This document shows positions 19,173 to 25,274 of a DNA stretch of 40,849 bases, piece by piece; position 1 is the first letter of the stretch, and the number at the start of each line of letters is the position of its first letter. Location: positions 1 to 40,849 of the IMG/VR virus record IMGVR_UViG_2563366924_000005. One strand, 5' to 3'. A model generated the notes under the pieces. That model had not been told where the DNA came from. It was given only the letters and a program-made list of their open reading frames with translations, and ran no database searches. The translations under genes and the position numbers were made by a program. The DNA is from a virus (lineage: Duplodnaviria; Heunggongvirae; Uroviricota; Caudoviricetes).

Positions 19173-20653
19173 GGTATGTTGTAGCTTGAGTAATCAATCT
19201 CTTTAGGATCTTTGATGTCTCGCATCTGTATTGCAAAACGCCTCATCATGTAGCCATAGCGAACAGCAGAAAGGATGTCGTCATTTAGCTTGACGATCTT
19301 CCCGTTCTCATCGCGGTGATACAGGCGAAACTCTTCAAAGAATGGCTCGCAGGTGTTAAATACCTTGAAACGACCGTCGAGCATCATGTCGCGTATCTCT
19401 GCTATCCCGGGTTCGACCGCATTACCTCCATCAGGCCATGTTGCATGATCTGGCAACATATCGAACCCAGCGTCGGCGTATTGTTCCTTGAGCTGAGCGC
19501 CGCCTCCCTTTTCGTGCTGATGCCCGTCATGAGGCCAAGCCGTAGGGGTGTTTTTGCTCCATGCTTTAACAGCACTCCATGCCTCTGTCGCCTTCTTCTG
19601 TTTGGCCTTCCAGACGCGAGAAAGATAAATCACGTCCTCGTCTTTATCCCACCAAAGCTGGATGTGTGCCTGTGGGTGATCCCATCCGAAGTCCATTGCA
19701 TTGATGACGTAGAAGTGATCAGGACACTCGAACGGCTGACACTTAATAGTCTCTTCCGGTATCTGGAAGATTCGACCACTACCCATCGTAGGAATACCGC
19801 GAGCACGCGCCTCTCTCTCATGCTCAGGATAGGATGCGATGATTTGCTCTTTCTGCTCGTCGGTATAGTGCTCAGCGTCATAGATGGTCATGTTGACCAC
19901 TTTCTGCGACTTGCTGGGATTCTTCAGGAACTTGGTAACAACGTCAGACATCCCCATCAGCGGGGTAAACGTCAGAATTGAGAATTGCCCGTATTTGTTG
20001 GTACGGGTAAGACCTTCGCCATAAATGCTGTATGGTGGCTCTTCGTCAAACCACACGCCGTGGATTGTGTCACCCTGCCAGCGAGCGCGGCCTTGCGAGT
20101 ATGGTTTGAAGTAGCAGATTGAAATGCCATCTTCAACGCCATCAGCCGTGTGATGCTTAACCAGAAGGTGATCAACAAGGTTCGGAAAGAAAGGAGACTT
20201 CTTCCAGCTAATGATGTCCTCTTTCGGTATTGAACCGTAGCCCGGCTCATCATTCTCTTCAATACGACCGCACAGGATGCGTTGAGTCGTTTTGGTTACC
20301 GTCTCGTTTGTCTCGCCACCAATCCAGAAGACAACAGGCTCATAGAAACGCTTACCTTTCCACTCACCGCCATATTTACCATCAGCAGGATAGCCTTTTG
20401 TGCCCGGATAACGCCCTGTAAGGTGAAACGCGACTTCAGCAGCACCAGTAAATGACTTACCAAGCTGGTTACCAGCCATAAAACAGCGCTCTGGATAGTC
20501 ATGTCCGGCGTCGATGAACTCACGCTGTTTGCTGTATGGCGTAAATTCATATAGCAGGTGTGTGTTCCGGTAGTTCTCTTCTTCTTCGAGTAGCTCGAGC
20601 AACTCGATTTGCTCTTCGTCGCTCAGGTTATCAAGAATCGCGTCCAGTTCCAC
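19157..20653 (-). CDS. Terminase large subunit, P22 gp2 homolog
   Basis: 498 aa; N-terminus [37 protein letters not shown]... matches recalled P22 gp2; overlaps the portal start. Confidence 0.85.
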
Positions 20654-21119
20654 GGTTGAATAGCTCCTTGATACGAGAGCGCCGCTTATCGCGATCTCCC
20701 TTATCAGGTGTCACGTCTTCAACTTGCGACTGCTCTTTGAGGCCCAAATCACGGGCGATGATGTTAGCGTTGAGAAGGTCAGCGGCTGCGCCAGAGAATT
20801 TCTGGTCGTAGATGATGTCTTCCGCTCGTGATGTGACGTCAGAAAAACCTTCCATTGACCGGAAGGTTCCCCATGTTTGCCTGGTGATATCAAGGAAGGT
20901 ACACAATCCTGAAATAGTCATGGCTCGCATCTTAGGGACATTAGCCTTAATTATTTCTCCCTGATATGAAAATACCTTGCCCTCCCATAGCGGGTTATCA
21001 TCAGCCCACTCGAAGTATTCACAACAAGCAGCCCACAGCGCCTCAGGCGATTCGAATTTAGGGTTTCGCCCATGACTACTGCGGGCCTCCCAAAATCGGT
21101 TGCCCTTTGGTGCTGCCAT
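20631..21119 (-). CDS. Terminase small subunit, P22 gp3 homolog
   Basis: 162 aa; N-terminus [38 protein letters not shown] and C-terminus [39 protein letters not shown] essentially identical to recalled P22 gp3. Confidence 0.9.
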
Positions 21120-21124
21120 ATTGA

Positions 21125-21613
21125 TTATTTCCCTTCTGTTTGCTTCCCAGCGGGGAACGAATCAACGCTGCCGCCGGAATAGCAGTCAAGATCAATTGCG
21201 ACTTGTACCGCTTCTCTCGCATTTTTGCCGCAGTGCATGGCTGTGCGAGCAATCAGCCAACCACTACCAATGGCATACGGTTCAACCTGTCGCGAAATAC
21301 TCGCCCGCGTTTCGCCTTTCTCTTTTGAGATGATGTAAGCACGACCAGCACCGATGATAGCAAGCGCGGTGAAAGAGAATGTCGGGAGAAATTCTGATGC
21401 ATACGTCAGGTTGTTCTTAAGCAGTTCCTGCAATTCCATCTCCGCGCCGCAATCACCAGAACAACCTAATGCAACCACTTTACTGCCGCAAACCTCCCAC
21501 CCAGATTCTGGCGGTGTGTAAATCTTTTGTTCTGTATACGAACACACAACATCACCAGATGATGCCTGGGTGTCAGATGCCAGGGTCTTTCCATCCCATG
21601 CAATAGTGGTCAT
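21125..21613 (-). CDS. HslV/proteasome-beta-like Ntn-hydrolase (putative threonine peptidase)
   Basis: 162 aa starting MTTIAWDG (Thr right after Met, as in HslV MTTIVSV); [18 protein letters not shown] aligns with HslV AGFAGGTADAFTLFELF; AIGSG motif present; sits between the lysis cassette and terminase. Confidence 0.6.
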
Positions 21614-21614
21614 A

Positions 21615-21857
21615 TCATGCTCCGGTGGTGAACAGGTCTAACGCTTCCTTCGATTTACGCACCGCTTCAATAGTTCGGGTCGTGATATCTGAATTAGCGC
21701 CGCCTGACTGGAAGTGAATTTTGAATAGCTCAAGCTTCAGCTCGTCAGTGCCAATGAACTGAAATGCTTCTTCTGCGGCTGCGTTCTGGTTCATGACCAG
21801 TTTGTAAATCTCTAACTGGAATTTCTGTTCTTCAGTCATGGGAATAACCTCTGCCAT
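21615..21857 (-). CDS. Hypothetical protein (80 aa) coupled to the HslV-like gene
   Basis: Its stop overlaps the HslV-like start; no recognisable motif. Confidence 0.45.
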   Translation of the reverse strand: MAEVIPMTEEQKFQLEIYKLVMNQNAAAEEAFQFIGTDELKLELFKIHFQSGGANSDITTRTIEAVRKSKEALDLFTTGA

Positions 21858-22160: not shown

Positions 22161-22631
22161 TTAAATGATTTGCCAGTCTTCTGCTAGAACATCAGTCTGA
22201 CTAGCCAGCCACGGTACTAATTTATCGTCCGCTGTCTTCATGCAAATGCATGGCAGCGTCACAAGGCCATTAACTCCGTCCAGGTCACACTCAAACCCCC
22301 AAGCATTCTGCTGGATAATGAACAGATATATCCCCTTACCATTCCAGCCAGCACGGGCAACTTTATTCCCCAACTTGAGCGCTTCAATGGCAAGGCCGAA
22401 ACTTAGCCCTGATACCGGACGATAAGCCTTTTCGAATACTTCTTTTGGACTCCAGCTAACGTAGCCATCAAAGCGATCGGTGTTAGGTTTTCCGCCATCA
22501 AGATATTCAACCAGATAGCCTTCATCCTCGCCGTTTTCTCCGGCAGGAAGCTGCCAGCCACGAAAATCGTTATATGCCTGTCTCGTCATCGGAAAGGCGT
22601 TAATCAGTTTTACGCCAATATGCTGGGTCAT
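22161..22631 (-). CDS. DUF2829-domain protein (Tad2-type fold) with N-terminal extension
   Basis: C-terminal half ...ALKLGNKVARAGWNGKG...VTLPCICMKTADDKLVPWLASQTDVLAEDWQII matches the DUF2829 signature as I recall it (GWNGKG ... YIxMKT...LVPWxxSQTDLLAEDWEI); preceded by a terminator after Rz. Confidence 0.6.
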   Translation of the reverse strand: MTQHIGVKLINAFPMTRQAYNDFRGWQLPAGENGEDEGYLVEYLDGGKPNTDRFDGYVSWSPKEVFEKAYRPVSGLSFGLAIEALKLGNKVARAGWNGKGIYLFIIQQNAWGFECDLDGVNGLVTLPCICMKTADDKLVPWLASQTDVLAEDWQII

Positions 22632-22652: not shown

Positions 22653-22677
22653 AATAAAAAGCCCCGCATCGCGAGGC
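22653..22677 (-). terminator. Rho-independent terminator downstream of Rz/Rz1
   Basis: On the minus strand: stem gcctcgc/gcggggc (one G-U pair) with loop gat, followed by TTTTT. Confidence 0.45.
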
Positions 22678-22709
22678 TCATTAAATGGACTTTGTGATTT
22701 GCAAAAAAA

Positions 22710-23177
22710 TTATTTCAGGCATTGCGTCCTGATGTATTCCTGCAGGTAGTTAACCTGCGCGGTTATCCTGTCGATTCCACTTCGGAGACGGTAATAATTG
22801 AGTTCAGCATCTGCTGTAAGTCTTGGGCTTTCTCCATCGCCCATGCTGCTGGCTCCGGTCGTTGACTTTGCACAGGTGGCGGCGACTTGCAGCCGCTTAC
22901 GGCCAGCAATGACATCGCTATGCAGACGCTCAATGGTTTCTTTCGCATCAGCCAGTTCTCCGGTGTATTTGGCATCCAGTGCAGCGACATCACGCTGGCG
23001 GGTCTGCATGTCTTTAATGGTGGCGGTCGCCAGGAGGAGTTTCTCAGTGGCCTTATCGCGCTGGTCTCTGTAAGTGATGGCGTTGTCGCGGTAGTGGTTC
23101 ACGAAGAAAGCCAGTGCGCCGATTAACGCCAGCACCAGCAACTGCAGCCAGTAACGCTTAACCAGTGCGCTAATCAT
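22710..23177 (-). CDS. Rz i-spanin (P22 gene 15-like)
   Basis: 155 aa, N-terminal TM anchor ([16 protein letters not shown]), coiled-coil periplasmic part; contains the embedded Rz1 reading frame; follows lysozyme. Confidence 0.75.
22763..22948 (-). CDS. Rz1 o-spanin lipoprotein, embedded in Rz in another frame
   Basis: [20 protein letters not shown] lipobox signal followed by a proline-rich segment; classic embedded Rz1 architecture. Confidence 0.7.
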
Positions 23178-23623
23178 GACAGGAACAGAGCTCGCTCTGC
23201 CTTGCGGCGATTCGTGAGCCCCGGCATCACCTTTCCGCCTGATTTATTCCAGCGCAGAAATTCATCTGCCGCGCCTTTTATATCGCCAGCATTCAGCTTT
23301 TTCAGCAGTGTAGATGTGGAAAGAGCACGCGACCCAACGTTGTAAGCGAACGACACCAGTGCGTCGAACTGGCCTTGTGTCAGCTTCACCCTGACAACTT
23401 TCAGCACGTCATTCTCATAACCAACAAGCCCTGTTTTCAGAAGCCTGTCAGCGGTTTGCTGGTCGATAGTCATACCGCGCTTTACTGGCTTTCCGTCAAC
23501 CGGATGGGTCCAGCCATAGCCGATGGTCCACGGCGCATCTCCCGTTCCGGGGTCGGGGTAAGCAGTCAGCCGACAACCTTCAAATTTTTTTATCAGAGCA
23601 ATTCCGTCAGGACTGGTTTGCAT
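23174..23623 (-). CDS. Endolysin, T4-lysozyme-type (glycoside hydrolase family 24)
   Basis: ORF 23174-23695; from [39 protein letters not shown] the sequence shows the lysozyme catalytic E...D...T motif; downstream of holin. Confidence 0.8.
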
Positions 23624-23960
23624 CGTCAACTCCCGCCTTTTTTGCTGCAAGTTTTTTAATAAGATTGCCGATCGAATCGGTGCCGATGTATCCAATAAAG
23701 ACGCTGGCTATGTAGGCGAGGTTGCTGCTCAGGCCGATAAAGTCCAGAAGGTCACGAACGAACCAGGCAATCATCGCGCACATCAGCGCATCAATTAGCG
23801 TTTTTGTTACCGCGCCGCCGTTATAGCGACCACGCAGATACGCCATGATAAAAGCCAGCATTGCACCAATACCCTGCTCCTTGGCGGCAAGTAGCGCAGC
23901 GATGAAATCTTGTTTGTATGGCAATTTTTTCTCCCTACGCCTGGCACGCGAATTGACCAT
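23607..23960 (-). CDS. Class I holin, lambda S-like
   Basis: ...[93 protein letters not shown] closely matches recalled lambda S. Confidence 0.8.
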
Positions 23961-24435
23961 GATATTTCCCCCTAAACTCTGAGATTACCAACTCAGCAAG
24001 TTCGAGATCATCGAAGTAACCCAACCAGATCTGCTTCTTATTTCTACTTCCGCAAACTCTCCATTTCCCATTCTTAACATCAAGCCTGACGCCCTTTATG
24101 GGATTCTTTCCTCCGGATGGTTTGCGTCTGTTATATTGATTTTCTGATTTGGTCGATAATCTGAGGTTTTTAATGCCATTGTTTAATGGGTTTCTATCTA
24201 AATGATCCACGTCCATTTCTGGCATGCATCCATATACATACAACCAAGCCAGCCGATGCTCTTTATAGATTTTCCCATCTATACGTATTTGCCTGTAACC
24301 AGATCCATTAATCGTTCCAGCTCTTGAGCCAACTTTAATTCTGCGATTGCTGGATTTAACCCAAGTAAAAACCCCTGAAACAGGATCATAGTGCATAAGG
24401 CTTTTCAGGACTTGCTGAGTGATTACCATTTTCAT
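23935..24435 (-). CDS. HNH homing-endonuclease-like protein (HNH plus AP2-type DNA-binding domain), copy 1
   Basis: Start MKMVITQQ with GGAGGTGA ribosome-binding site; motifs [24 protein letters not shown] and [12 protein letters not shown]; inserted between tRNA-Asn and holin; AT-rich. Confidence 0.75.
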
Positions 24436-24617
24436 AGGCCTCACCTCCGATTTTCCGGATGGTGCTGTGTGTGTTTGTAGGGGAAAGGCCGTCAGACTCT
24501 GATTGCTACATGGCATCTGAAAATGATATCTGCGGCCTGCAATAAAAAAGCCCACGGCGCGGTGGGCAATAGAGGGTAGTGCGTTGAGCTTTTGCTCTTA
24601 TGGTCCTGGTAGGTATT

Positions 24618-24692: not shown

Positions 24693-24755
24693 AAATAAAA
24701 AAAGCCACCGTTGCAACTTAAGAGTCACTAACGGCAGCTTACCCTCTAATTATGG

Positions 24756-25274
24756 CTAAATGGCTAATTGCATGTCAAGGTTTTTAACAGCAACATGCTT
24801 AACTTTCTCAACACGTTTACGCATTTTGAAAGCATTTTGCATTGGTTGGTACAAAACAAATAATGACGCTTTCAGGATGTCGTCAATTTCATTTCTACAG
24901 GTTGCCAGTGAAGGTTTTCTCCATCCCTCGCCACCACGTCCACACATCTTGCGTGGCTTTGCAGTCGCGTGATAGTAGGATGCAATTGCTCGCTTAGATG
25001 AACCATGAGCGTAGTAGCTGAGGAGGATGCCAAAGGCTTTCTTGTCAATGTACATGACGGAATCGACGACCTGAGAAATCAACATTCCATCGTCATCATT
25101 ACACATTGGCCTTGTAATAACTCTTCCCGGCTCTACGCTCTCCATGAACTTCGCTATTACGCTGCTCATGCGCTTTTCCAGACGACCTGAATAAACCCAT
25201 GCGCCCCATAGTTCAAGCCATCCATTCAGCCAATCGTGCTGCTCTTTGGTGAGGTTTATTTCTCTTATGCTCAT
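24756..25274 (-). CDS. Late-gene antiterminator Q (QuuD-type)
   Basis: 172 aa; WLELWGAWV and CNDDDGMLIS motifs resemble QuuD-type Q proteins as I recall them; position just upstream of the lysis cassette and downstream of ninH/rusA. Confidence 0.65.
   Translation of the reverse strand: MSIREINLTKEQHDWLNGWLELWGAWVYSGRLEKRMSSVIAKFMESVEPGRVITRPMCNDDDGMLISQVVDSVMYIDKKAFGILLSYYAHGSSKRAIASYYHATAKPRKMCGRGGEGWRKPSLATCRNEIDDILKASLFVLYQPMQNAFKMRKRVEKVKHVAVKNLDMQLAI

Follow-up and report, generated by a model that had tools for sequence, protein, structure and literature searches.

A proteasome-beta/HslV-like hydrolase gene as a likely single-gene accessory cassette in the late operon of a P22-like phage

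The window, that is, the whole stretch of 40,849 nucleotides (nt) analysed here (IMG/VR record IMGVR_UViG_2563366924_000005), is the DNA of a P22-like phage. Two genuine open reading frames (ORFs) lie at positions 21125-21857, both on the minus strand. One, here called PPH, encodes a protein of 162 amino acids (aa) related to HslV and to the proteasome beta subunits, and the other, ORF80, encodes a protein of 80 aa with a DUF2560 domain. Our reading is that PPH is a single-gene accessory cassette, coding for a miniature proteasome-beta/HslV homologue and lodged in a late-operon slot of variable content; taken jointly with the mechanism and the role discussed below, we consider this reading likely. 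Coordinates are those of the window unless a locus is named, and gene orders are given along the direction of transcription.

Identity and predicted active site of the PPH protein

The PPH protein starts with MTTIAWDG, the nucleophile threonine being placed directly after the methionine, and contains the motif YAIGSGW. An earlier note on this DNA had proposed an HslV/proteasome-like N-terminal nucleophile (Ntn) hydrolase, citing the MTTIA start and an AIGSG motif, and both of these are indeed present. A GxxGG motif, also cited, is not found, the motif by the oxyanion glycine reading G-C-S-G-D. Annotation pipelines already label the protein "peptidase HslV family", the name of PHROG 1040, which it matches with an E-value of 3e-37. 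Searches made with the single sequence gave no Pfam match at E<=1, no PADLOC match and no usable match in the Protein Data Bank (PDB); the sole NCBIfam match was arc_protsome_B, at 14.8 bits for a cutoff of 224. Homology is detectable only via the PHROG model or via a family profile. Compared with solved structures, a profile of 45 homologues matches archaeal proteasome beta at 1e-9 and HslV at 1e-8. The AlphaFold2 model obtained with the 45-sequence alignment has a predicted local distance difference test score (pLDDT) of 95.2 and a predicted template modelling score (pTM) of 0.89, and the top PDB matches retrieved with this model by Foldseek are all proteasome beta, HslV or the beta-proteobacterial proteasome homologue (BPH). 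Structure prediction, together with a complete predicted catalytic set, supports the view of the earlier note that the PPH protein is an Ntn hydrolase of the proteasome-beta/HslV fold.

The predicted catalytic residues are T2, D14, K30 and G53, which correspond to Thr1, Asp17, Lys33 and Gly47 and are invariant across the 45-sequence alignment. Further predicted residues are G116-S117-G118 (Ser129 region), D143 (Asp166) and S146 (Ser169). In a larger set of 241 relatives, threonine or serine follows the methionine in 240, the equivalents of Asp17, Lys33 and Gly47 are each found in 239, the Gly-Ser-Gly motif is near-invariant and the equivalent of Asp166 is kept in 219. The equivalent of position 45, in the S1 pocket, varies widely among these PPH relatives. 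The ratio of non-synonymous to synonymous substitution rates (dN/dS) is about 0.08 relative to the 91%-identical orthologue of phage Dewey, which indicates that PPH is a real gene under purifying selection. The match statistics (PHROG 3e-37, profile 1e-9 and 1e-8, dN/dS) are far beyond chance, and PPH almost certainly encodes an active enzyme, as judged from its sequence.

The protein has no propeptide, and the core that matches the profile covers residues 1-153 of 162. An insert of about 14 residues (~33-47), specific to the enterobacterial clade and modelled as a short hairpin, is located at the S3/S4 site, and the C-terminal tail is short and disordered. In the AlphaFold2 model, one helix (57-66) is observed between S4 and the next strand (81-88), where HslV and proteasome subunits have two; helix H2 is therefore absent. 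In the profile alignment to HslV, a gap of about 16 residues falls at this same helix H2.

The PPH family was described as group I subunits of about 140 residues, near BPH and HslV, without propeptide and without H2 (PMC8665760). Its members occur in tailed phages and prophages of Proteobacteria, and their function is unknown (PMC8665760). The published set has WP_042125023.1 as its representative (Mendeley dataset t48yhff7hs). The 162-aa protein fits this family by the features described, since it is compact and propeptide-less, carries a threonine after the methionine, lacks H2, keeps Thr1, Asp17, Lys33 and Gly47, and is borne by a tailed phage; as a proxy for the sequence clustering, the PHROG 1040 match is the only one at hand. 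The window copy thus shares with the published family the compact subunit without propeptide, the catalytic set, the absence of H2 and the phage or prophage location. It differs in its length (162 aa vs ~140-147), the S3/S4 insert and the C-terminal tail accounting for the extra residues, and in its location, the slot that a P22-like phage has between its ORF80 and small terminase genes.

The PPH family is now much larger than at the time of its publication. About 9061 clusters at 50% identity match PPH at E<=1e-10, and matches are found in 107-490 of 50,697 phage records, depending on the query, as well as at 179 IMG/VR loci. Among the best 150 matches, 142 sequences (P0100-P0241) were newly returned. 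Their median length is 147 aa; 139 of them begin with Met-Thr or Met-Ser, and nearly all of these matches begin at residue 1.

HslV (ClpQ) shares with the PPH protein the Met-Thr-Thr-Ile N-terminus, the threonine exposed after removal of the methionine and the AIGSG motif, and the two proteins are of comparable size. However, the identity between the two proteins is only about 20%, and as a single sequence the PPH protein stays below the thresholds of Pfam PF00227 and of the NCBIfam HslV/proteasome models. Moreover, HslV has a helix H2 contributing to the pocket for the HslU tail, whereas the PPH model has none. HslV is also partnered with hslU, whereas the phage has neither an adjacent hslU nor any AAA+ gene in the window, where tblastn with an HslU-like protein gave no match. 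The PPH protein is thus not HslV proper. BPH (PDB 5ovs/5ovt) is larger, with ~185-200 aa, keeps H2, has a long acidic pore loop and is chromosomal, whereas PPH is phage-borne.

ORF80 and the variable slot of P22-like phages

The two genes, their junctions and the gene that follows are arranged in the window as listed here.

21615..21857, minus strand: ORF80/DUF2560 gene, 80 aa, resident in P22-like phages (Pfam PF10834, 1.1e-43)
21611..21623, minus strand: ORF80-PPH junction, GGAG-CA-TGA-T-ATG (sequence)
21125..21613, minus strand: PPH gene, proteasome-beta/HslV-like N-terminal-threonine hydrolase, 162 aa (PHROG 1040, family profile, AlphaFold2 model)
21117..21135, minus strand: PPH-gp3 3' junction, AAGGGAAATAA-tcaat-ATG (sequence)
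20631..21119, minus strand: small terminase subunit gp3, P22-type, downstream limit of the variable slot (PF16677, 8.3e-31; phrog_606, 3.5e-71)

The 80-aa ORF is ORF80 of P22. The two proteins are 97.5% identical, have the same length and occupy the same map position, just upstream of the small-terminase region; they show no real difference except for the next gene, PPH in the window and a 59-codon phrog_3546 ORF in P22. The AlphaFold2 model of ORF80 is made of four helices (pLDDT 84.5), and a structure search of the PDB with this model gave no significant match, all E-values being above 1. The literature searched contains no functional work on DUF2560. According to the earlier note, P22 has no such gene at this place; this is correct for the 162-aa gene, for which tblastn in P22 returned nothing, and incorrect for the 80-aa ORF.

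The homology that the window shares with P22 stops exactly at both ends of the PPH ORF. The corresponding 204-nt P22 "spacer" (AF217253, locus L006, 2620-2822, minus strand) contains no decayed PPH. Instead, it carries a 59-codon ORF that starts with GTG and has no annotation. Over its full length, this ORF matches phrog_3546 (1.8e-42), and its junction with ORF80 is TGA-T-start, as for PPH in the window. Because ORF80 is resident and P22 joins a different ORF to it, PPH appears as one of several alternative cargos of a late-operon slot, and ORF80, in our view, anchors the edge of this slot as a neighbour of PPH, not as an obligate subunit. The earlier description of a two-gene cargo module is therefore not supported, nor is the idea of an unknown kind, the peptidase fitting the PPH family and PHROG 1040 and the 80-aa ORF being a resident DUF2560 gene.

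At the upstream junction, a Shine-Dalgarno-like GGAG (21623-21620) lies within the final codons of ORF80. The TGA of ORF80 (21617-21615) and the ATG of PPH (21613-21611) are separated by a single spacer base (21614), so that the two frames are one base apart and do not overlap, contrary to what the earlier note stated. At the downstream junction, the PPH stop codon (21127-21125) is followed by a 5-nt spacer and by the gp3 start (21119-21117), and the position of the purine-rich 3' end of PPH makes it a candidate ribosome-binding site for gp3. The 3' junction of PPH is also found in other prophages, ahead of a P22-type gp3 or of an Sf6-type small terminase.

ORF80 is widespread without PPH. DUF2560 is present in 169 phage records, and PPH in only one P22-like record, that of phage Dewey, which leaves ~168/169 without it; in Dewey, moreover, a 95-aa ORF separates ORF80 and PPH. 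Phage Louie has the Tad2-like gene found upstream in the window and ORF80 but no PPH gene, its record ending right after ORF80. Among 5426 complete Escherichia coli genomes, about 2568 contain DNA matching the region and about 7 have the ORF80-PPH-terminase arrangement; ORF80 without PPH also occurs in thousands of prophages. With a presence in 1 of ~170 P22-like records and in ~7 of the 5426 E. coli genomes, PPH does not behave as a conserved virion-assembly component, the outcome that the earlier note had held against its own proposal. Conversely, in 93 PPH loci compared (from IMG/VR, GenBank phages, E. coli prophages and metagenome contigs) and grouped into 23 PPH lineages, the DUF2560 profile finds homologues only at loci of lineages 0, 3 and 5, the other 20 sampled lineages being without.

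These distributions bear on the idea that ORF80 and PPH form an obligate two-component module, in which the helical ORF80 protein would be a regulator, an adaptor, an inhibitor or a substrate of the hydrolase. The one-nucleotide gap and the location of the PPH ribosome-binding site within ORF80 speak for such a module. So does the junction GGAGCnTGAyATG, which is kept in ORF80-PPH pairs whose members are only 64-73% (PPH) and 28-61% (ORF80) identical to the window copies, and so does the presence of the pair ahead of differing terminase modules, as if the two genes travelled together. Conservation of the junction in diverged pairs makes translational coupling, and a long co-residence in one sub-lineage, plausible. 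However, ORF80 lives without PPH in P22, Louie, nearly all phage records and nearly all matching E. coli genomes, P22 uses the same junction for another ORF, and 20 of the 23 PPH lineages have no DUF2560 homologue at their loci. Even in the closest clade the arrangement varies, with a reversed order (L040), an interruption by an inserted gene (Dewey, L025/L026) or PPH without ORF80 at five loci (L027, L033, L038, L039 and L046). An obligate module is thus quite unlikely, and of the coupling put forward in the earlier note, the translational part holds as plausible while a dedicated partnership does not.

The late operon of the window and PPH contexts across phages

The remaining features of the region, upstream of ORF80, are the following.

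24749..24778, minus strand: late-promoter-like site, TTGACA-18-CATAAT, 11/12 matches (consensus scan only)
24567-24550, minus strand: terminator-like hairpin just after the late-promoter-like site, upstream of the lysis genes (consensus scan only)
23607-23960, minus strand: holin gene
23174-23695, minus strand: endolysin gene
22710-23177, minus strand: Rz gene
22161..22631, minus strand: accessory gene, 156 aa, Tad2-like/DUF2829 domain in the C-terminal half (Pfam PF11195, 9.9e-26)

The gene order is holin, endolysin, Rz, Tad2-like gene, ORF80, PPH, gp3, large terminase subunit (TerL) and portal, in agreement with the location between lysis cassette and terminase given in the earlier note. On the minus strand, the consensus scan finds no further promoter-like site between the late-promoter-like site and PPH. 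An HNH endonuclease ORF (23935-24555, minus strand; phrog_99, 1.7e-65) stands between the promoter-like site with its hairpin and the holin gene, and has the look of a homing-type insertion where the late operon starts. A second terminator-like hairpin (22659-22679, minus strand) separates Rz from the Tad2-like gene. It is strong, with 9 pairs, of which 6 are G-C, followed by a T run, and its read-through inside the late operon presumably depends on Q-type antitermination. The Tad2-like gene, which lies upstream of PPH with only ORF80 in between, is a candidate for an anti-defence function; it is also present in phage Louie, on 99%-identical DNA, where it is annotated "anti-CRISPR protein".

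Clustering of all ORFs of the 93 PPH loci revealed no broadly shared neighbour family, only terminase, portal and lysis genes being recurrent, and no AAA+ gene is adjacent to PPH in any of these loci. In lambdoid and P22-like elements, PPH is found between the lysis cassette and the packaging genes, typically directly upstream of the small terminase gene, and four families of small terminases follow it (P22 gp3, Sf6 type, phrog_1206 and phrog_5334). In a lineage of Klebsiella and Salmonella siphophages, PPH lies between TerL and portal. In Jedunavirus-like phages, it belongs to a small opposite-strand island within the structural module, and in other phages it is found among small early-type genes. 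The small ORFs that precede PPH in Dewey and in Klebsiella phage IME346 are mutually unrelated.

Some loci deserve a separate mention. An Acb3 homologue is encoded six genes upstream of PPH in locus L010 (2982-3803), and an AcrVA2-like gene lies about 6.5 kb downstream of PPH in L097 (10991-11507). In a metagenomic phage (L013, 4800-6642), the gene for a 148-aa PPH runs 8 nt into the start of the large terminase gene; it occupies the position expected for the small terminase, and no small terminase was identified nearby. Finally, a 141-aa protein (WP_194153723.1; L007, 3080-3505, minus strand, NZ_CP062855.1) bears the RefSeq name "ubiquitin carboxyl-hydrolase". It shares 89% identity with a protein that matches Pfam Sf6_terminase (7e-44), and it is located where the small terminase belongs; for these two reasons, the RefSeq name is probably a misannotation.

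Jumbo-phage contigs (22-235 kb) present a different situation, with two or three PPH paralogues, in tandem or closely clustered, beside a DUF7484 gene.

L061, 6001-7209: jumbo-phage PPH paralogues
L062, 3219-4492: jumbo-phage PPH paralogues
L065, 6001-7954: jumbo-phage PPH paralogues
L071 and L073, 5081-7124: jumbo-phage PPH paralogues

Some of these paralogues begin with Met-Ser or Met-Thr-Ile, and in L062, L065 and L071 they are near a gene for the tubulin PhuZ. Their clustering suggests hetero-oligomeric assemblies in nucleus-forming phages. In several PPH-bearing jumbo phages of Erwinia and Salmonella (ChrisDB, Caitlin, Huxley, Machina, pEa_SNUABM_4/_43 and SPAsTU, among others), an HslU-like AAA+ protein is encoded as well, its gene lying about 100 kb from PPH. 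The gp116 protein of Erwinia phage RAY, assigned to the "HslVU protease family" and reported to be nucleus-localised, was considered as a PPH protein and rejected, gp116 being an HslU-like ATPase (L095, 1353-3062). The PPH profile matches neither of the two 179-aa neighbours of gp116, and in phage RAY, PPH is neither among the matches listed nor beside the HslU-like gene.

Expression, mode of action and role

Following the organisation of lambdoid phages and P22, PPH would belong to a Q-dependent late operon. Since no promoter-like site of its own was found and the ribosome-binding site lies at the end of ORF80, PPH is most likely expressed late in the lytic cycle and translationally coupled to ORF80. 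In E. coli HslV, methionine aminopeptidase removes the methionine and exposes the threonine nucleophile. The PPH threonine also directly follows the methionine, and the host methionine aminopeptidase should therefore expose it. By comparison with the family, Asp14 and Lys30 would complete the triad and Gly53 would form the oxyanion hole. By analogy with HslV and BPH, the enzyme would then cleave peptide bonds, probably as a ring oligomer, and its substrates may be peptides or loosely folded proteins of the host or of the phage. The absence of both H2 and a phage AAA+ unfoldase leads us to favour a peptidase that is stand-alone or non-canonically partnered, and canonical docking on the host HslU is less likely than a stand-alone action resembling that of BPH.

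The docking question deserves attention, since one may imagine that the PPH protein is an HslV surrogate, binding the host HslU (ClpY) hexamer or the HslU-like ATPase of jumbo phages and thereby redirecting ATP-dependent proteolysis. The HslU-like AAA+ proteins of PPH-bearing Erwinia and Salmonella jumbo phages are in line with this idea, as are the tandem jumbo paralogues, which suggest ring assemblies. However, the pocket of HslV for the C-terminal tail of HslU includes Phe54, Phe57, Ala79/Lys80 and Gln114 (PMC6429459), and Ala79/Lys80 fall in the region that is absent from PPH together with H2. In addition, PPH scores below the HslV/proteasome family thresholds, the window has no AAA+ gene, the jumbo HslU-like genes are some 100 kb from PPH, and one is present in RAY, where PPH is not among the matches listed. 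We consider such a surrogate unlikely. It is less probable still that the protein is a ligase or transpeptidase of the connectase kind, or an amidase whose target is a small molecule or a protein modification, rather than a degradative peptidase; this we hold to be very unlikely. In connectase, the S3/S4 site carries an insertion that shields the active site and determines specificity (PMC8665760), and the insert of the enterobacterial clade is found at the same site; the wide variation of the S1 position-45 equivalent across the family also speaks for this alternative. Nevertheless, the nearest structural relatives (HslV, proteasome beta and BPH) are degradative, the PPH insert is a short hairpin and not the two-helix lid of connectase, and helices H1 and H3/H4 are both kept in PPH, unlike in connectase. 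Finally, the position directly upstream of terminase in many lambdoid and P22-like contexts, the TerL-portal position in the siphophage lineage and the late-operon location might evoke a virion-morphogenesis protease, heading the packaging/head block and processing prohead or scaffold. Yet close relatives assemble without PPH, which is present in 1 of ~170 P22-like phage records, no Pfam or PHROG similarity to known prohead protease families was found, and distant phages hold PPH in small accessory islands or early-gene arrays. In addition, the P22 scaffold is recycled without proteolysis, and a morphogenesis protease is, all in all, highly improbable.

For the single-gene accessory cassette that we favour, the most likely role is accessory host takeover or counter-defence, and not virion morphogenesis; this is the least certain part of our reading. 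We lean toward this role because of the sporadic distribution of PPH, its accessory slot and its anti-defence-like neighbours (Tad2-like, Acb3 and AcrVA2-like). A more precise version would be a protease made late for counter-defence or host takeover, which would eliminate an immune protein of the host by itself or with a captured host unfoldase. The target may be a sensor triggered by late proteins, for example by terminase or portal, and the tandem paralogues of jumbo phages would build hetero-oligomeric rings. Stated so specifically, the proposal is speculative and has a low probability.

Several points weigh against our reading. For the promoter and the terminator, consensus matches are the only basis. 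The literature searched contains no functional, biochemical or genetic study of any PPH or phage HslV-like protein. The anti-defence idea draws on the neighbourhood alone; PADLOC gave no match, and the region also has genes unrelated to defence, Rha and HNH. Because several jumbo PPH phages encode an HslU-like ATPase, an unfoldase-dependent mode is conceivable, and the conserved junction of the co-diverged ORF80-PPH pairs leaves room for a functional link, to which we give a low rating.

For the window itself, the result is mostly clarifying: PPH is an accessory gene of a recognised family, and the partner attributed to it is an ordinary P22 gene. More generally, among proteasome-like families PPH alone is primarily viral; it counts about 9000 clusters at 50% identity and occurs in roughly 1% of sequenced phage genomes. 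No function has been assigned to any viral proteasome homologue; the counter-defence proposal, if true, would provide the first one. A copy in a tractable P22-like coliphage offers a convenient system for studying this family, and the isolated phage Dewey carries a 91%-identical copy of PPH.

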